Made by a program: the position numbers and the translations under genes. This document shows positions 1,285-5,874 of a DNA stretch of 19,196 nucleotides, one piece after another (positions within the stretch are counted from its first letter, which is position 1; each line of letters starts with the position of its first letter). A model generated the notes under the pieces. That model searched no databases and was not told the DNA's origin. It saw only the letters and a program-made list of their open reading frames with translations. The DNA lies in IMG/VR virus record IMGVR_UViG_2534682325_000029. One strand, given 5' to 3'. This DNA comes from a virus. Lineage: Duplodnaviria > Heunggongvirae > Uroviricota > Caudoviricetes.

Positions 1285-3756
1285 TTAAAAATCAGCCTGA
1301 CTCGGGAGCAGTTTTTGCCAGATGGCTGAAACGTATTTTGCCTGGTAACGCGCATCGTGCAGGGCGTTATGGCGTTCACCTTCGAATGGAATAGTCGTTC
1401 TTGCGTCGAAATCCATCACCAGTCCCAGAGCAACCATCGTTCTTACATCGCGATCATTGGTGTAACGCCACGGGCAGGGGATCCCCTGCCGTTCATATGA
1501 ACGGCGTAAAATCACGTTGTCGAAAGTTGCACCGTTACCCCAGACCTGAACAAAAAATTCACCGGAGTTTTCGTCGATAAATTCCCGGAATTGCAGCAGT
1601 GCATCATCCAACGTGATTTCATCGGTCAGAATGGAGGATTGTGCTTCGCGTGACTGTTTCAGCCACCACTTAATGGTGTCCCGATCGATGACCCCACCTG
1701 CGGTTTCCAGATCGATAGTTTTGCTGAATTCTGGCCCCATCTCTCCGGTTGCCGGATCAAAAAACTTACCGGCTATAGAGTTTATTGGCGCATCAGGATT
1801 TTTTCCCATTGTTTCAAGGTCAATCATCAGATGGTGCCACAACCTGCTGGTGGATGAGATTTCATGATGACCGTTCACTTTAATTAAGGGATTTGCTGTT
1901 TCGCCAGTTTTATTATCGCTGGCGTGATACTGATCGCTGCCAGTGTTCTCCTTGTGCAGATGTTCAGTGCCTTCCATTTCCTCCGGATCATTTTTCTGAG
2001 CTTCAGCCTGATTCTCTTCATCGAATGTTTCCAGGTAGGTTGCGTTCCCCATCACCGCACCACAGTCAGGACAGTTGCCGCCACCGGTCTGACCGCATGC
2101 GGTGCAAACTTTTTCCAGTTCCTGTTGCACTGCTGGTTCTGGTTGTTGTTCTTCTGGCCCGTTTTGTTGCGTATCCGGGCTGTTTTGTTCCGCTTCTGGC
2201 TCATTTTGTTTCACGTTGGGCTGATTCTGGTCCTCAGCGTCGCGACTCTGGATCCCTTTCACCCATTTCGGATCATTCGGGTCGCTAATCCCTTCAACAA
2301 ATTCACCACGTGATGCAGCAAGCAATTTATCGGCGTCAGGCTGGCTGATATTGGCTGCCTGCATAATTTTGTTTACTTCGTCAGCGGTAACTTTTACCGG
2401 CTCTGATTGTTCGGAATCTTCAGCGGTATCCACATTTTGCGGTAAGCCCGTGTATGTGCCATTTTTTCGGGCAAAATATTCTTCTTTTGAGATTTCGGTA
2501 CCGCCGGCAGCCAGCGCCTTGTCCAGACCAGAAAGTTTGTTTGCCCTGCCGTATTTTTCCCCGCCCTTATCGGTAAAGACGAAATAAAATGGTCCTTCAC
2601 GCTCTACAGATGGTTCAGCTTCCACCAGGATTTCATTTTTTTGAGTATCGGATTCTGCCGTCTCCACTGGAGCAGTTTGTGCTGCTGACGGCTGGAGAGC
2701 ATCAGTAGAGCTCTGGTCTGTTTCTTCATGTTCAAACACGCCCTTTGTCGTCAGGTATTCACTGATATATTTGTTCAGTGCAACGGGATCTTTGTGAATA
2801 TCGATCGGACGTTCGCGAACAAGGCCAAAAATAGTCTGACGGTCATAGCCAAGTGCTTCGGGCTGTTTGCGCATTGATGCTGAGATACGCTTCCAGTCTT
2901 CGCGATCCTTGTCGATAACCTCATTTGTCGCCCAGCGATGGATGGTACCGTCAATGTTTCCTGCATCCACATCACCGGGCCAGAGGGCGCAGGCCAGTTC
3001 ATTGTCGAGTGTTTTCCATGTCTGTTTGTATTCGCGGCGAATGGCAACAGTGACAGCCCCGGTTTTTTCAGCAGCGTTTTCAGGGTTCTGTTGGTTGACT
3101 CTGGCGCGGGCGAGATCAACAACAGACGTGTATTTTCCGGTTTCCTTGCGTTCACCTTCGCGACGTTTTTTCCAGATGCGCATCTCTGCCTGAATTTCAG
3201 GCCATTTAGCGCCAGGCTCACATTTATGCTTAACCCACCCGATGGCATGCAGTTTAAGTTCAGGATACATGGCGTTAACTTCTGGCATTTTCATCAACGC
3301 TTCAACGATATGTCCGCCGAATGTTGCCATGTCTTCCTGTAGTAATTCCTGTGCGCTAATCACCATATCAACGGTGATGTTTTCGCATGTGTCGAATTTA
3401 ACCAGGACTGCGTTCTGTACTTCAGGGGACAGCTTGTCAAAATTGACGTTCATCGGATCGGATTCTGGTTCGACCGGTACAAAGGAAGCTGACTCCTCAT
3501 CCCAGCGGTTTTCCTGCATATATTCGGTATCCCAGGAATCGAGGGCAGGGCGGGGTATGCCGGGTTTATCCTCGCAGACAATAAATTTATAAGCGCAGTC
3601 CTGAGCTGCCGGGAATTGCTCCAGAAATTGCCAGTGAAATTTTGCGCGTGCGCGACGCTCATCACCGGCTTCAATGGCAGTGGCCACCGCAACAGCGCTA
3701 TCTTCTTTTATGGCCTGTTCGTCAGGAATAGCAGCGCAAATAAAGATTTTACTCAT
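1285..3756 (-). CDS. Large prophage exonuclease (823 aa): RecE-like central segment, Q/E/P-rich linker, CxxC-x8-CxxC zinc ribbon, C-terminal DEDDh 3'-5' exonuclease domain
   Basis: C-terminal motifs MIDLETMG (Exo I, D-x-E), GNGATFDNVIL (Exo II) and HNALHDARYQ (Exo III, H-x4-D with Tyr) are typical of DnaQ-like exonucleases. Central segment DADKLLAASRGEFVEGISDPNDPKWVKGIQ resembles RecE of Rac as recalled from memory. SD GAGGT precedes the ATG. Confidence 0.75.
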   Translation of the reverse strand: MSKIFICAAIPDEQAIKEDSAVAVATAIEAGDERRARAKFHWQFLEQFPAAQDCAYKFIVCEDKPGIPRPALDSWDTEYMQENRWDEESASFVPVEPESDPMNVNFDKLSPEVQNAVLVKFDTCENITVDMVISAQELLQEDMATFGGHIVEALMKMPEVNAMYPELKLHAIGWVKHKCEPGAKWPEIQAEMRIWKKRREGERKETGKYTSVVDLARARVNQQNPENAAEKTGAVTVAIRREYKQTWKTLDNELACALWPGDVDAGNIDGTIHRWATNEVIDKDREDWKRISASMRKQPEALGYDRQTIFGLVRERPIDIHKDPVALNKYISEYLTTKGVFEHEETDQSSTDALQPSAAQTAPVETAESDTQKNEILVEAEPSVEREGPFYFVFTDKGGEKYGRANKLSGLDKALAAGGTEISKEEYFARKNGTYTGLPQNVDTAEDSEQSEPVKVTADEVNKIMQAANISQPDADKLLAASRGEFVEGISDPNDPKWVKGIQSRDAEDQNQPNVKQNEPEAEQNSPDTQQNGPEEQQPEPAVQQELEKVCTACGQTGGGNCPDCGAVMGNATYLETFDEENQAEAQKNDPEEMEGTEHLHKENTGSDQYHASDNKTGETANPLIKVNGHHEISSTSRLWHHLMIDLETMGKNPDAPINSIAGKFFDPATGEMGPEFSKTIDLETAGGVIDRDTIKWWLKQSREAQSSILTDEITLDDALLQFREFIDENSGEFFVQVWGNGATFDNVILRRSYERQGIPCPWRYTNDRDVRTMVALGLVMDFDARTTIPFEGERHNALHDARYQAKYVSAIWQKLLPSQADF

Positions 3757-3851
3757 TGTGTTTTAACCTCATTACAGATTTCAGGGTGAACGAATCCCTG
3801 CCATTGCTGGCATTTTTAATCCGTTGGTATGGCGTTAATATGGCTGGCGGG

Positions 3852-4040
3852 TTATCCAGCCGGTGTTTCGTTATTCAGGTACAGCGATACTTTTTTTACC
3901 GGTAGGCATTCACCAGAAATTTTTTGCTCGTCTCTTGCCTGGAGGCAGGATTCTTTACTGGCATAAATTCCGGTAATAACATTCTGTGATTCACCCGTTA
4001 TAAGAAAAACCGTCATCACCAGTGCAAATGCTGAAGTCAT
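3852..4040 (-). CDS. YdfD-like small protein with N-terminal hydrophobic segment (62 aa)
   Basis: ORF directly downstream of the dicB-like gene with a 4-nt stop/start overlap, mirroring dicB-ydfD order in the Qin prophage. N-terminal MTSAFALVMTVFLITG is hydrophobic. Confidence 0.5.
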   Translation of the reverse strand: MTSAFALVMTVFLITGESQNVITGIYASKESCLQARDEQKISGECLPVKKVSLYLNNETPAG

Positions 4041-4225
4041 TGACGTTCTCCGAAAATACCAAGTTTAATAAGGGCAATTCGGGAAAGAATGGAATTATCA
4101 TTGAGCAGATAAGGCTCATATTTCCGCATATTAATGGCATCCTCAGTAAACGCTTTATTACTGAGCAGAACACCAATATCAAAACAACCTTCAGACGTAT
4201 TAACGTTTGGTAATAACGTTTCCAT
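4037..4225 (-). CDS. dicB: DicB-like cell-division inhibitor (62 aa)
   Basis: N-terminus METLLPNVNTSEGCFDIGV...FTEDAIN closely matches E. coli DicB (METLLPNVNTSEGCFEIGV...FTEDAIN, recalled from memory). Same length as DicB. A DicF-like sRNA lies upstream as in the dicB operon. Confidence 0.75.
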   Translation of the reverse strand: METLLPNVNTSEGCFDIGVLLSNKAFTEDAINMRKYEPYLLNDNSILSRIALIKLGIFGERQ

Positions 4226-4403
4226 TATCGCGTCCTCAACAATGAATTTTGTGATGCAGTGCCTGGTGCCTCCAGGTGACGTTAACCAGTTAACAATTAA
4301 CGTCGGGTTAGTTGATGCTCGTTACGCCAGTAAAAGACCGCCTTACTGCTTTAACTGTTCCGCGTGCGCATAGCCGCATTCACCGCATCACAAAATTCAC
4401 TTT

Positions 4404-4445
4404 AAAAAGGGCGGATATCCATTTCCGCCGAATCACCAGAAAAGT
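4404..4445 (-). ncRNA. dicF: DicF-like small RNA (divergent, shortened variant) with intrinsic terminator
   Basis: Minus strand reads TTTCTGGTGATTCGGCGGAAATGGATATCCGCCCTTTTT. The 5' TTTCTGGTGA matches the DicF 5' end as recalled, and GGCGG...CCGCC plus a T5 run forms a terminator hairpin. Sits immediately upstream of dicB as in Qin. Internal loop is shorter than K-12 DicF, so function is uncertain. Confidence 0.45.
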
Positions 4446-4705
4446 GATAACAGAGGTTGTTGTGGCTGGGGTGTCACTTAAGCGTATGGTCAACCTGACA
4501 ACCCGGTGTCCTCAACGGGGGAAGGAATAACCCCGCCATACTTACCGCCGCGCCATTTCGCGGATTGCCACAACCAGAAGCGCACGGTCGAATTAAATTT
4601 AACGACGACCTATACAGAGAGACTAACTTCGCCGTGCGCTTTCGTGTTATGCCCTGACTTTTCAGGGTAAATTAACCTGTGGAAACCTGTTTTTACTGGC
4701 GCTAA

Positions 4706-4858
4706 TCAGTTAGCGTTTCTTGCTAACCAGCGATGCGCGCCAGCTTCGGTTTTAAACGTTTTACTTCTGGTATACGTCATCGCGGTAAACGTGCCGTCGT
4801 GGTTGGGGAATACTCCGCACACCAGAGATTCATTGTTGCCAAGATTGAGCATATCCAT
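4706..4858 (-). CDS. YdfA-like small protein (50 aa, below the ORF-track size cutoff)
   Basis: Hand-translated minus-strand ORF MDMLNLGNNESLVCGVFPNHDGTFTAMTYTRSKTFKTEAGAHRWLARNAN, preceded by SD GAGGT. First gene downstream of the putative PL promoter, matching ydfA position in the Qin dicB operon. Confidence 0.45.
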   Translation of the reverse strand: MDMLNLGNNESLVCGVFPNHDGTFTAMTYTRSKTFKTEAGAHRWLARNAN

Positions 4859-5038
4859 GTTGACCTCATTTACCCTTAACGCCGGGTCGCGGAACTAAAA
4901 ACCTGCTGCGCTGTTATACAAAGTGTTCCCGCCGTCATGTTCATACGCCTCGGGCTGGCTACTTAACCCCTGACCACTGCCGGGTAACTCGAGGTATTGC
5001 CCGACGTTCTGTGGGGCGAGGTAGGGTGGTATGTAATA

Positions 5039-5083
5039 AATCTAAAAGTATTTAGTTTTTCAGTCAAGGTAAATCTAGATTAA
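5039..5083 (-). promoter_or_regulatory. Putative OL/PL: leftward promoter (-35 TTGACT, 17-bp spacer, -10 TAGATT on minus strand) overlapping operator-like AATCTA/TAGATT palindromes
   Basis: Minus strand reads TTGACT (plus 5062-5067) then 17 nt then TAGATT (plus 5039-5044). Operator-like sites AATCTAAAAGTATTTAG (5039-5055) and perfect palindrome AATCTAGATT (5072-5081) overlap it. Confidence 0.45.
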
Positions 5084-5086
5084 TTT

Positions 5087-5112
5087 AAAAAAAAGGTCGG
5101 CATTGCCGACCT
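5087..5112 (-). terminator. Rho-independent terminator downstream of the cI-like gene
   Basis: Minus strand reads AGGTCGGC-AAT-GCCGACC followed by T8: a GC-rich hairpin plus U-tract located 21 nt after the cI stop. Confidence 0.6.
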
Positions 5113-5132
5113 CAAGTAAAGGACGTGGCGGG

Positions 5133-5780
5133 TTATAAGTTGAACTGTACACCTTTTGCTACGGCAACAATTTTACACTCTGGTGTAAGTAAGGATGACT
5201 GATAGCGTGGATTGAGAGGGCTTAAATACACAAGCTTCCCATCAATAACTAATTTCTTTATAGTCATAGATGGTTCATTTTTAAGCGGATCCGGAACTAT
5301 TACAGCGACGATGCTGCCATTTTTATAACTTTCTCCTGGCCTTAGGATCACAGTAGCACCAACTGGGATACTCGGTGATCCTGATGGGTTATGCATTGTG
5401 TCATCAGGCATTGAAACGGCAAAATCACCTTCCTCGACATCAAAGAATGTGGTGATTCTATCGACATTTCCCATTGTTTTCTCTCCTTTTAAGATTAGGA
5501 AAGAAATCGCCTCACCCCACGAAAGGTAGGGGATCTTGGTGCCTGAGGTACTTTGTACAAAAGATAATTCAGGAGACGATACTCCATATAGGAGATAGGA
5601 CTCAGTAGTTCCTAATGCCTGGGCTAACTTACTTAGAGCTTTGCTACCTGGTTCGTTTAGATCTTTCTCCCAGTACCCTATAGTAACCCCAGTCACGCCT
5701 GAAAGCTTACCCAGTTCTACTTGGGTCAGCCCCTTATCTTTTCTAAGTCTCTTAAGCCTGAAGCCAAGGCTTTCCATCAT
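5133..5780 (-). CDS. CI-type prophage repressor: N-terminal HTH (XRE family) plus C-terminal LexA/S24 peptidase-like domain
   Basis: N-terminal GLTQVELGKLSGVTGVTIGYWEKDLNEPGSKALSKLAQALG is an HTH_XRE signature. C-terminal ~120 aa has the size and layout of an S24 autocleavage domain. Start taken at the ATG ATG pair preceded by AGGAGA; the ORF-track start at 5792 is a TTG. Confidence 0.82.
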   Translation of the reverse strand: MMESLGFRLKRLRKDKGLTQVELGKLSGVTGVTIGYWEKDLNEPGSKALSKLAQALGTTESYLLYGVSSPELSFVQSTSGTKIPYLSWGEAISFLILKGEKTMGNVDRITTFFDVEEGDFAVSMPDDTMHNPSGSPSIPVGATVILRPGESYKNGSIVAVIVPDPLKNEPSMTIKKLVIDGKLVYLSPLNPRYQSSLLTPECKIVAVAKGVQFNL

Positions 5781-5874
5781 TTTCTCCTGCAAATTGAATA
5801 TAAATTATTTTAGATTGCATTGACCTAAAAAAAATTATCTTGTAATCTAAAAATACTTAGATTTGGGAGGTAAA
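5781..5874. promoter_or_regulatory. Putative OR region with divergent PRM/PR promoters and operator palindrome AATCTAA-N6-TTAGATT
   Basis: Intergenic region between divergent cI-like and cro-like genes. Contains TTGACC at 5820-5825, an A/T-rich -10 region, palindrome AATCTAAAAATACTTAGATT (5844-5863) and an extra TAGATT half-site at 5811-5816. Half-sites match those in the OL region. Confidence 0.5.

Follow-up and report, generated by a model that had tools for sequence, protein, structure and literature searches.

A truncated allele at the dicF position of a dicBF-type operon in an Escherichia coli O157:H7 prophage, beside an atypical CI-like repressor

In a 19,196-nucleotide stretch of viral DNA (IMG/VR record IMGVR_UViG_2534682325_000029; the whole stretch is called the window in the following) we identified a truncated and previously unrecorded allele at the position of dicF, the gene of the small RNA DicF, located beside an atypical CI-like repressor. 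The region covers the promoter-proximal portion of a leftward early (PL) operon and is a homologue of the dicBF operon in the Qin prophage of Escherichia coli K-12. DicF is a model prophage small RNA; in enterohaemorrhagic E. coli (EHEC) it has been connected with the sensing of oxygen, with type III secretion and with Shiga toxin. The cassette as such is a known system, since dicBF-type operons have already been noted in several O157 prophages, and this basic picture is left unchanged by our results. In the reading that we favour and consider likely, the window carries the PL operon of an E. coli O157:H7 prophage, most likely CP-933U/Sp14, in which the truncated dicF allele acts mainly as a terminator, any block of cell division would come from the DicB protein and the adjacent repressor probably does not cleave itself in the SOS response.

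The element at the dicF position (UUUCUGGUGAUUCGGCGGAAAUGGAUAUCCGCCCUUUUU) spans 39 nucleotides, whereas the equivalent span in K-12 comprises 58 nucleotides. It begins with a DicF-like 5' end (TTTCTGGTGA at 4433-4442, minus strand), a sequence that is expected 0.06 times per window and was found twice on one strand, and it continues into the hairpin GGCGGA-AAUGGAUA-UCCGCC followed by CTTTTT, which was matched by the terminator scan at 4429..4410. The predicted fold consists of a free 12-nucleotide 5' tail, a GC-rich stem of 6 bp, an 8-nucleotide loop and a U5 run, with -10.7 kcal/mol compared with -15.9 kcal/mol for the fold of K-12 DicF. The first 10 nucleotides of DicF RNA (RF00039; UUUCUGGUGA), the base of its terminator stem (GGCGG/CCGCC, the bottom 5-6 bp) and the U-run are kept, and so are the location between the conserved leader and dicB and a precursor hairpin that surrounds the 5' end. 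By contrast, the upper stem (AUCAG/CUG) and the UUUUACUCCGUGA loop are missing, and nucleotides 11-18 are changed as well; the K-12 sequences UAUCAGUUUUACUCCGUGACUGCUCUG and GACGUUUGG correspond to AAAUGGAUAU and GAUUCGG in the short allele. Only 60% of the element is identical to K-12, in comparison with 87% for the leader in front of it and 84% for the spacer behind it. Because of these conserved flanks we regard the element as homologous to dicF by position. A chance origin was ruled out by the same flank identity. The first-pass annotation of the window, which was made from the sequence alone, had described a DicF 5' end and a terminator hairpin in front of a DicB homologue, and both are present. 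It had also placed the shortening in the stretch that separates the 5' end from the terminator; the element is indeed shorter than DicF, but what is lost is the upper stem and loop of the hairpin itself.

The same annotation had spoken of a DicF-like small RNA, which does not hold in the sense of the Rfam family and fails the Rfam check that the annotation itself had named. In searches of 561 and 81 nucleotides the DicF model gave no match to the element, neither at its gathering score of 48 bits nor at E<=10, while the K-12 dicF control reached 76.7 bits. The short allele also lacks an extended hairpin with an ftsZ-complementary loop and 3' part. Judged from its sequence, the element is dicF by descent and position, yet it fails defining features of the DicF family.

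Balasubramanian et al. showed that DicF uses its 3' part to pair with ftsZ and pykA and its 5' part to pair with xylR (PMC5069750). Whole-length RNAduplex gave meaningless duplexes with long loops, and a windowed local duplex search was used instead. With K-12 DicF this search recovered the pairing of nucleotides 6-18 with positions +7..+20 of xylR (12 contiguous bp, -20.4 kcal/mol) and of nucleotides 26-43 with the pykA ribosome-binding site (-22.5 kcal/mol); the pairing with manX involves nucleotides 36-50. The short allele yielded neither the xylR nor the pykA duplex. No duplex with the ftsZ ribosome-binding site was found either, although here the search also missed the published K-12 pairing, so that the loss of ftsZ pairing is read from the missing nucleotides together with the published work (PMC5069750). 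Since only nucleotides 1-10 of DicF are kept, all four validated K-12 pairing sites are absent (ftsZ, pykA, manX) or broken (xylR, nucleotides 6-18). The earlier suggestion that the element has different targets or is inactive thus pointed in the right direction. That the element is a bona fide DicF which still represses ftsZ, so that the operon would encode two division inhibitors as in Qin, is extremely improbable. In its favour, the element shares the operon position, the 5' 10 nucleotides and the terminator base with DicF. However, the ftsZ-pairing loop and 3' part (AGUUUuaCUCCG, facing CGGAGagAAACU in ftsZ), the function of which has been demonstrated (PMC5069750), are wholly missing, no Rfam DicF score was obtained at any threshold tried, and the local duplex search likewise gave no ftsZ pairing.

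We propose instead that the main role of the short hairpin within the operon would be that of an intrinsic terminator or attenuator, and that it would also mark a site of processing. An RNA of about 39 nucleotides might be released from it, but this would not be an antisense RNA to ftsZ. In transcripts that read through the terminator, the spacer would fold into a long helix involving the ribosome-binding region of dicB. A division block, if any, would be exerted by the DicB protein acting with MinC, like K-12 DicB. The adjacent CI-like protein would repress the operon via operators overlapping PL and would probably not cleave itself on an SOS signal, so that the cassette would normally be silent.

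On the minus strand, the PL-like promoter with its operators is followed by a 180-nucleotide 5' untranslated region, the ydfA-like gene, a leader of about 260 nucleotides, the hairpin terminator, the structured spacer of about 180 nucleotides, the dicB-like and ydfD-like genes, an exonuclease VIII-type gene and integration functions (Table 1). The promoter sits just past the terminator of the repressor gene. The two operator-like repeats that overlap it belong to a family of 16-18 nucleotides (TAAATCTAAAAGTATTTA) with a further copy at 5842-5859; the gap between cI and cro also holds one in inverted orientation, at 5801-5816. The promoter and the repeats shared by PL and PR constitute a PL/OL arrangement, and the PL-driven operon in a lambdoid immunity region that had been noted at first reading was thereby recovered. 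No open reading frame of at least 40 amino acids was present on the minus strand within the 5' untranslated region.

All three open reading frames of the cassette score above the gathering scores of their own Pfam families, lie in the corresponding operon positions and are annotated concordantly in RefSeq at the identical locus. The DicB-like frame, directly downstream of the dicF position, matches PF05358 with 121.4 bits (cut-off 27) over profile positions 1-62 of 62, and RefSeq names it dicB. Its C-terminal half is unlike that of K-12 DicB. Compared segment by segment, identity to K-12 amounts to 81% for ydfA, 71% for dicB and 62% for ydfD. A second exact copy of TTTCTGGTGA is located inside the ydfD-like frame at 3910-3919 (minus strand). 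Moreover, the first 8 nucleotides of the ydfA-like frame (ATGGATAT, 4851-4858, minus strand) recur exactly as the hairpin loop of the short allele (AUGGAUAU, 4414-4421, minus strand), which may be a coincidence or a trace of the origin of the allele.

Table 1. Features of the window, listed along the PL operon from its repressor and then for the rest of the stretch. Positions are those of the 19,196-nucleotide window.
Feature	Position	Strand	Evidence or remark
CI-like repressor	5133..5792	minus	HTH_3 E 2e-12, Peptidase_S24 E 5.4e-11; terminator at 5093-5113
PL-like promoter, sigma-70-like	5067..5039	minus	promoter scan; -35 TTGACT, 17-nt gap, -10 TAGATT
Two operator-like repeats overlapping the PL-like promoter	5037-5054, 5070-5087	minus	
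5' untranslated region, PL to ydfA-like frame (about 180 nt)	4859..5038	minus	read from sequence
YdfA-like open reading frame, 50 aa	4706..4858	minus	DUF1391 PF07151, E 1.3e-28, 98.8 bits; 80% identical to K-12 YdfA
Conserved untranslated leader, in place of ydfB, ydfC and dicF precursor region	4443..4705	minus	87% identical to K-12 over 226 nt
Truncated dicF-position element, 39 nt	4404..4442	minus	K-12 alignment, fold, terminator scan
Structured spacer, 178 nt	4226..4403	minus	84% identical to K-12; consensus fold
DicB-like open reading frame, 62 aa	4037..4225	minus	DicB PF05358, E 1.3e-35; 65% identical to K-12 DicB over 55 aa
YdfD-like open reading frame, 62 aa	3852..4040	minus	DUF1482 PF07358, E 2.6e-16, 59.7 bits; 47% identical to K-12 YdfD
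Exonuclease, 823 aa, exonuclease VIII (RecE) type; next operon gene	1285..3756	minus	C-terminus: Pfam Rv2179c-like exonuclease domain, E 3.6e-62; RefSeq 'exonuclease'
Integrase	1-1023	minus	
hok/sok locus	10888-11062		sok 114.9 bits
tRNA-Met(CAT), tRNA-Arg(TCG), tRNA-Arg(TCT), after Q	13978-14227		
STnc100 RNA, full member, late region	14998-15170	plus	Rfam 100.8 bits
DUF1737/SASA esterase, NanS-p type, 616 aa, late region	15307-17157		
IS3-family element with ALIL frameshift pseudoknot, late region	about 17239-18452		

Compared with Qin (ydfA-ydfB-ydfC-dicF-dicB-ydfD-ydfE in K-12), the window agrees in gene order, in strand logic, in its YdfA, DicB and YdfD homologues and in the overlap of the ydfD start with the dicB stop (ATGA). 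The two operons differ in the 39-nucleotide hairpin, which replaces the 53-nucleotide DicF, in the C-terminal half of DicB and in the absence of ydfB and ydfC. From the ydfA stop to the dicF-position element, the minus strand has no open reading frame of at least 40 amino acids, and alignment of the ydfA-to-dicB interval with the ydfC-to-dicB interval of K-12 confirmed that both genes are absent and showed homology along the entire non-coding stretch. Hence the first-pass description of a Qin-type cassette without frames of ydfB or ydfC size was correct: all four of its parts are in place on the minus strand, including a DicB-like protein that aligns with DicB over the full profile. The gene following ydfD agrees with the exonuclease annotated at this place in other O157 dicBF loci, whereas K-12 has a ydfE pseudogene interrupted by IS2. 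In addition, a CI-like repressor with helix-turn-helix and S24 peptidase domains and a P22-Cro-like partner are found here instead of the DicA/DicC pair of Qin, and the prophage is largely intact, unlike the Qin remnant.

The identity of the untranslated leader to K-12 exceeds that of every open reading frame of the operon. It contains the hairpin CCCUGA-AAAG-UCAGGG at 4652-4667, the 5' half of which we take to resemble lambda boxB, and a long-range stem (GCGCACGG/CCGUGCGC) that varies in its apical part. A part of the leader is also present at kilR loci, and no Rfam family matched it. In the spacer, a closing helix of about 26 bp is predicted between the sequence just past the terminator and the sequence just before the dicB Shine-Dalgarno sequence, and the single-sequence fold has -78.4 kcal/mol (z = -3.75). 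The helices of the leader are present in the consensus fold of 42 loci with slight covariation; these 42 non-redundant loci are too similar for covariation in leader and spacer to be judged, with double changes in only 3 pairs per alignment, and both structures are given here as predicted folds. It has been shown that RNase III processes the K-12 dicBF mRNA just downstream of the terminator (PMC5069750). By analogy, the closing helix is probably the substrate of this processing. The spacer also aligned with STnc100 (Rfam RF02076) at 4248-4397 on the minus strand with 29.3 bits and E 1.6e-4, below the gathering score of 47. Two hairpins are common to the spacer and the STnc100 copy in the late region, with compensatory changes (CCUGG/CCAGG versus CCGGG/CCCGG).

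The window is a lambdoid prophage of E. coli O157:H7, and many O157:H7 chromosomes contain a stretch with 100% identity to its bases 3800-4900. In strain PV15-279 the identical locus adjoins a tRNA-Ser gene and mtfA. Furthermore, sok and STnc100 are placed in the window in agreement, in reverse orientation, with sok_14 (2,777,459) and STnc100_9 (2,773,346) of EDL933 (PMC5331693). From the EDL933 coordinates and the tRNA-Ser/mtfA junction we infer that the window belongs to prophage CP-933U, for which the Sakai name is Sp14.

In an alignment of the repressor of the window with lambda CI and 14 homologues, the nucleophilic Ser149 of lambda CI aligns with a Thr (DDTM) in the window protein. The scissile Ala-Gly is changed to Ala-Ile (VQAGMF in lambda, GEAISF here), while the catalytic Lys (Lys192 of lambda) is kept in IKKL. 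Accordingly, of the features of a self-cleaving repressor the protein has the helix-turn-helix and S24 domains, but neither the Ser nucleophile nor the Ala-Gly scissile bond. The Thr and the altered Ala-Gly site are shared by the window protein and every relative of at least 49% identity, whereas more distant relatives keep the Ser and three of them also VQAG. Within the subfamily with Thr, the cleavage site reads Ala-Ile, Ala-Met, Ala-Lys or Ala-Thr and the catalytic Lys is kept; its hosts comprise E. coli, Salmonella, Yersinia, Sodalis, Arsenophonus and Symbiopectobacterium.

Asadulghani et al. reported in 2009 that a marked rise of transcripts after mitomycin C was seen for Sp5, Sp13 and Sp15 only, together with a clear induction of the residual Sp1 early genes, and they classed Sp14 as inducible solely via regional replication driven by Sp15 (PMC2669165). 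Because of the Thr in place of Ser, the Ala-Ile in place of Ala-Gly and the published data, which show no mitomycin C response for Sp14, SOS inducibility of the cassette is doubtful. The window had initially been credited with a full LexA-type cI and hence with a cassette that could be SOS-inducible; the S24 domain is there, but inducibility does not follow from it. If the cassette were nevertheless SOS-inducible, RecA-stimulated self-cleavage of the repressor would let PL fire and DicB would block division during induction. We regard this as quite improbable. It would fit with the helix-turn-helix and peptidase domains, with the retained Lys of the Ser-Lys dyad and with the published observations that the Sp14 repressor is among those retaining the peptidase domain and that circular Sp14 DNA was detected after mitomycin C only (PMC2669165). 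However, the nucleophile and the Gly of the cleavage site are replaced throughout the subfamily, the transcript rise was confined to the other prophages, and the excision of Sp14 was ascribed to the regional replication of Sp15. A repressor subfamily with Thr for Ser would also account for the silence of Sp14 after mitomycin C despite its peptidase domain.

Of 5426 complete E. coli genomes, 442 contained the short allele at full length; most are of serotype O157:H7, but O91:H21, O104:H21 and a commensal are included. Canonical dicF was present in 3973 genomes. Further copies of the short allele were detected in prophage contigs of IMG/VR and in Escherichia albertii, and none in a deposited phage genome. 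A scan of GTDB genomes with the pattern TTTCTGGTGA..GGCGG..CCGCC was loose and returned almost exclusively chance matches, of which that in E. albertii (L140) was the sole useful one. Changes within the short allele are few: three loop variants (AAAUGGAUAU, AAACGGAUAU and AAAUGAAUAU), a C/A difference just past the stem and a single stem change from GGCGG to GGTGG (L264) that retains the pairing as G-U. A third class of allele (GGCGGCAUCUGUUUGCCCAUGAACUGAUGUCCGCC, with another loop) was found at locus L250 (NZ_AP018488.1 2029196) and at L012 and L111. It scored 43.5 bits, just below the 48-bit threshold, and about 600 complete E. coli genomes, O157:H7 among them, carry it at >=99% identity. 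Scanning for the constant junction of terminator and spacer gave about 40 distinct sequences at the dicF position with at least 8 loop types and four 5' tails, among which the short allele is the sole class without upper stem and loop. It accompanies one particular type of DicB C-terminus.

In strain PV15-279 there are five loci, of which three carry a canonical, one a class-3 and one the short allele. The other O157:H7 dicBF loci represent the same cassette in lambdoid prophages of one genome, but they have canonical or class-3 dicF and have kept ydfC, and in the two examined for this (L250 and L251) the adjacent repressors have no annotated S24 peptidase domain. The locus of the window corresponds to about 2,784,079-2,784,117 on the + strand of EDL933 and thus lies apart from all four DicF sites given for this strain (1.255, 1.881, 2.159 and 2.326 Mb; PMC5331693); four copies are also given in PMC7873438 and PMC11774850. 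The EDL933 RNA-seq and Ribo-seq paper and its supplements hold no entry at the inferred position, a full-text literature search for the sequence of the element returned no paper, and the main text of Tree et al. 2014 mentions neither DicF nor Sp14. The RefSeq E. coli genomes annotated with PGAP have no feature under canonical dicF either; therefore, a missing non-coding RNA annotation says nothing on any dicF allele.

Several points weigh against the reading we favour. The termination efficiency, the processing and the existence of a 39-nucleotide RNA are predictions from the sequence, the placement in Sp14 is drawn from coordinates and a junction, and DicB, with its different C-terminal half, has a predicted activity only. 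Thr could in principle act as a nucleophile, which would allow self-cleavage of the repressor. A pairing of DicF with pchA has reportedly been observed in EHEC and, if limited to nucleotides 1-10, could survive in the short allele. Finally, the 39 nucleotides are nearly invariant even where the flanks of the prophages have diverged, E. albertii included, which would fit selection on a trans-acting RNA as well, and Hfq-binding small RNAs usually have the same build, a 5' tail followed by a GC hairpin and a U-run.

The last two points belong to an alternative in which the element functions as an Hfq-dependent small RNA and has targets of its own, a re-targeted DicF paralogue using its single-stranded 5' tail of 12-13 nucleotides (UUUCUGGUGAUUC) as seed. 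This seems rather unlikely to us. The element remained near-unchanged in all the genomes and contigs named above while the leader hairpins, the spacer and dicB diverged, its one stem change keeps the pairing, and canonical copies are kept alongside in the same O157 genome. Moreover, loop and tail are hypervariable across prophages, as expected if alleles have separate targets. Nevertheless, canonical and class-3 alleles have kept the first 10 nucleotides too, and since these lie in the loop of a precursor hairpin at the site of the 5' cut, processing alone could explain their conservation. The loop of the short allele is free to vary, the allele is found neither in a deposited phage genome nor in a paper, and no sign of a transcript came to light.

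Similar elements were found upstream of kilR in Rac-type phages. Rac-SA53 and phiSTEC1589-Stx1c belong, together with IMG/VR contigs, to a series of loci (L252-L293) in which terminator base, U-run and a nearly identical structured spacer are constant before dicB or kilR. Like dicB, kilR is a small gene for a cell-division inhibitor, here followed by exonuclease VIII. Unlike the short allele, the kilR module has a different 5' tail and loop, a full-length upper stem and kilR rather than dicB downstream. At L255, L260 and L293 a non-DicF tail is joined to the ftsZ-pairing loop of DicF. Tentatively, and we consider this rather unlikely, the dicF position could be a slot for swappable small RNAs with terminator base and spacer constant and 5' tail and loop exchanged among prophages, whether dicB or kilR follows. 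O157:H7 would then possess three functionally different alleles, of which the minimal one would be selected as seed-only form or as natural null. If this were true, canonical, class-3 and minimal alleles would coexist in O157:H7, the four copies of DicF counted in EHEC would be non-equivalent, and the minimal allele would uncouple DicB expression from the antisense control of ftsZ.

The locus is a further dicBF operon in the O157:H7 strains for which four copies are counted, with its DicF apparently reduced to a bare terminator. Searches by the Rfam model or by near-identity miss the short allele. Studies on copy number or deletion of dicF and dicB in O157:H7 should count this fifth locus carrying dicB. 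Besides, the allele series offers a natural experiment in which the parts of DicF needed for processing and termination can be told from those needed for target pairing.

Beyond the repressor, the plus strand carries the P22-Cro-like gene, ydaT, genes for a DnaT-like O protein and for P, hok/sok, DUF968, RusA and Q. These are followed by three tRNA genes, the STnc100 RNA, the NanS-p-like esterase and the IS3-family element. Proteins of the exonuclease VIII type have been described in Sp14 (Asadulghani 2009, PMC2669165). Judged by the EDL933 coordinates, another STnc100 copy of that strain, STnc100_4, overlaps the recently named small RNA EvrS. EvrS, which is given as single-copy in PMC11774850, therefore seems to belong to a set of about 11 STnc100 paralogues.

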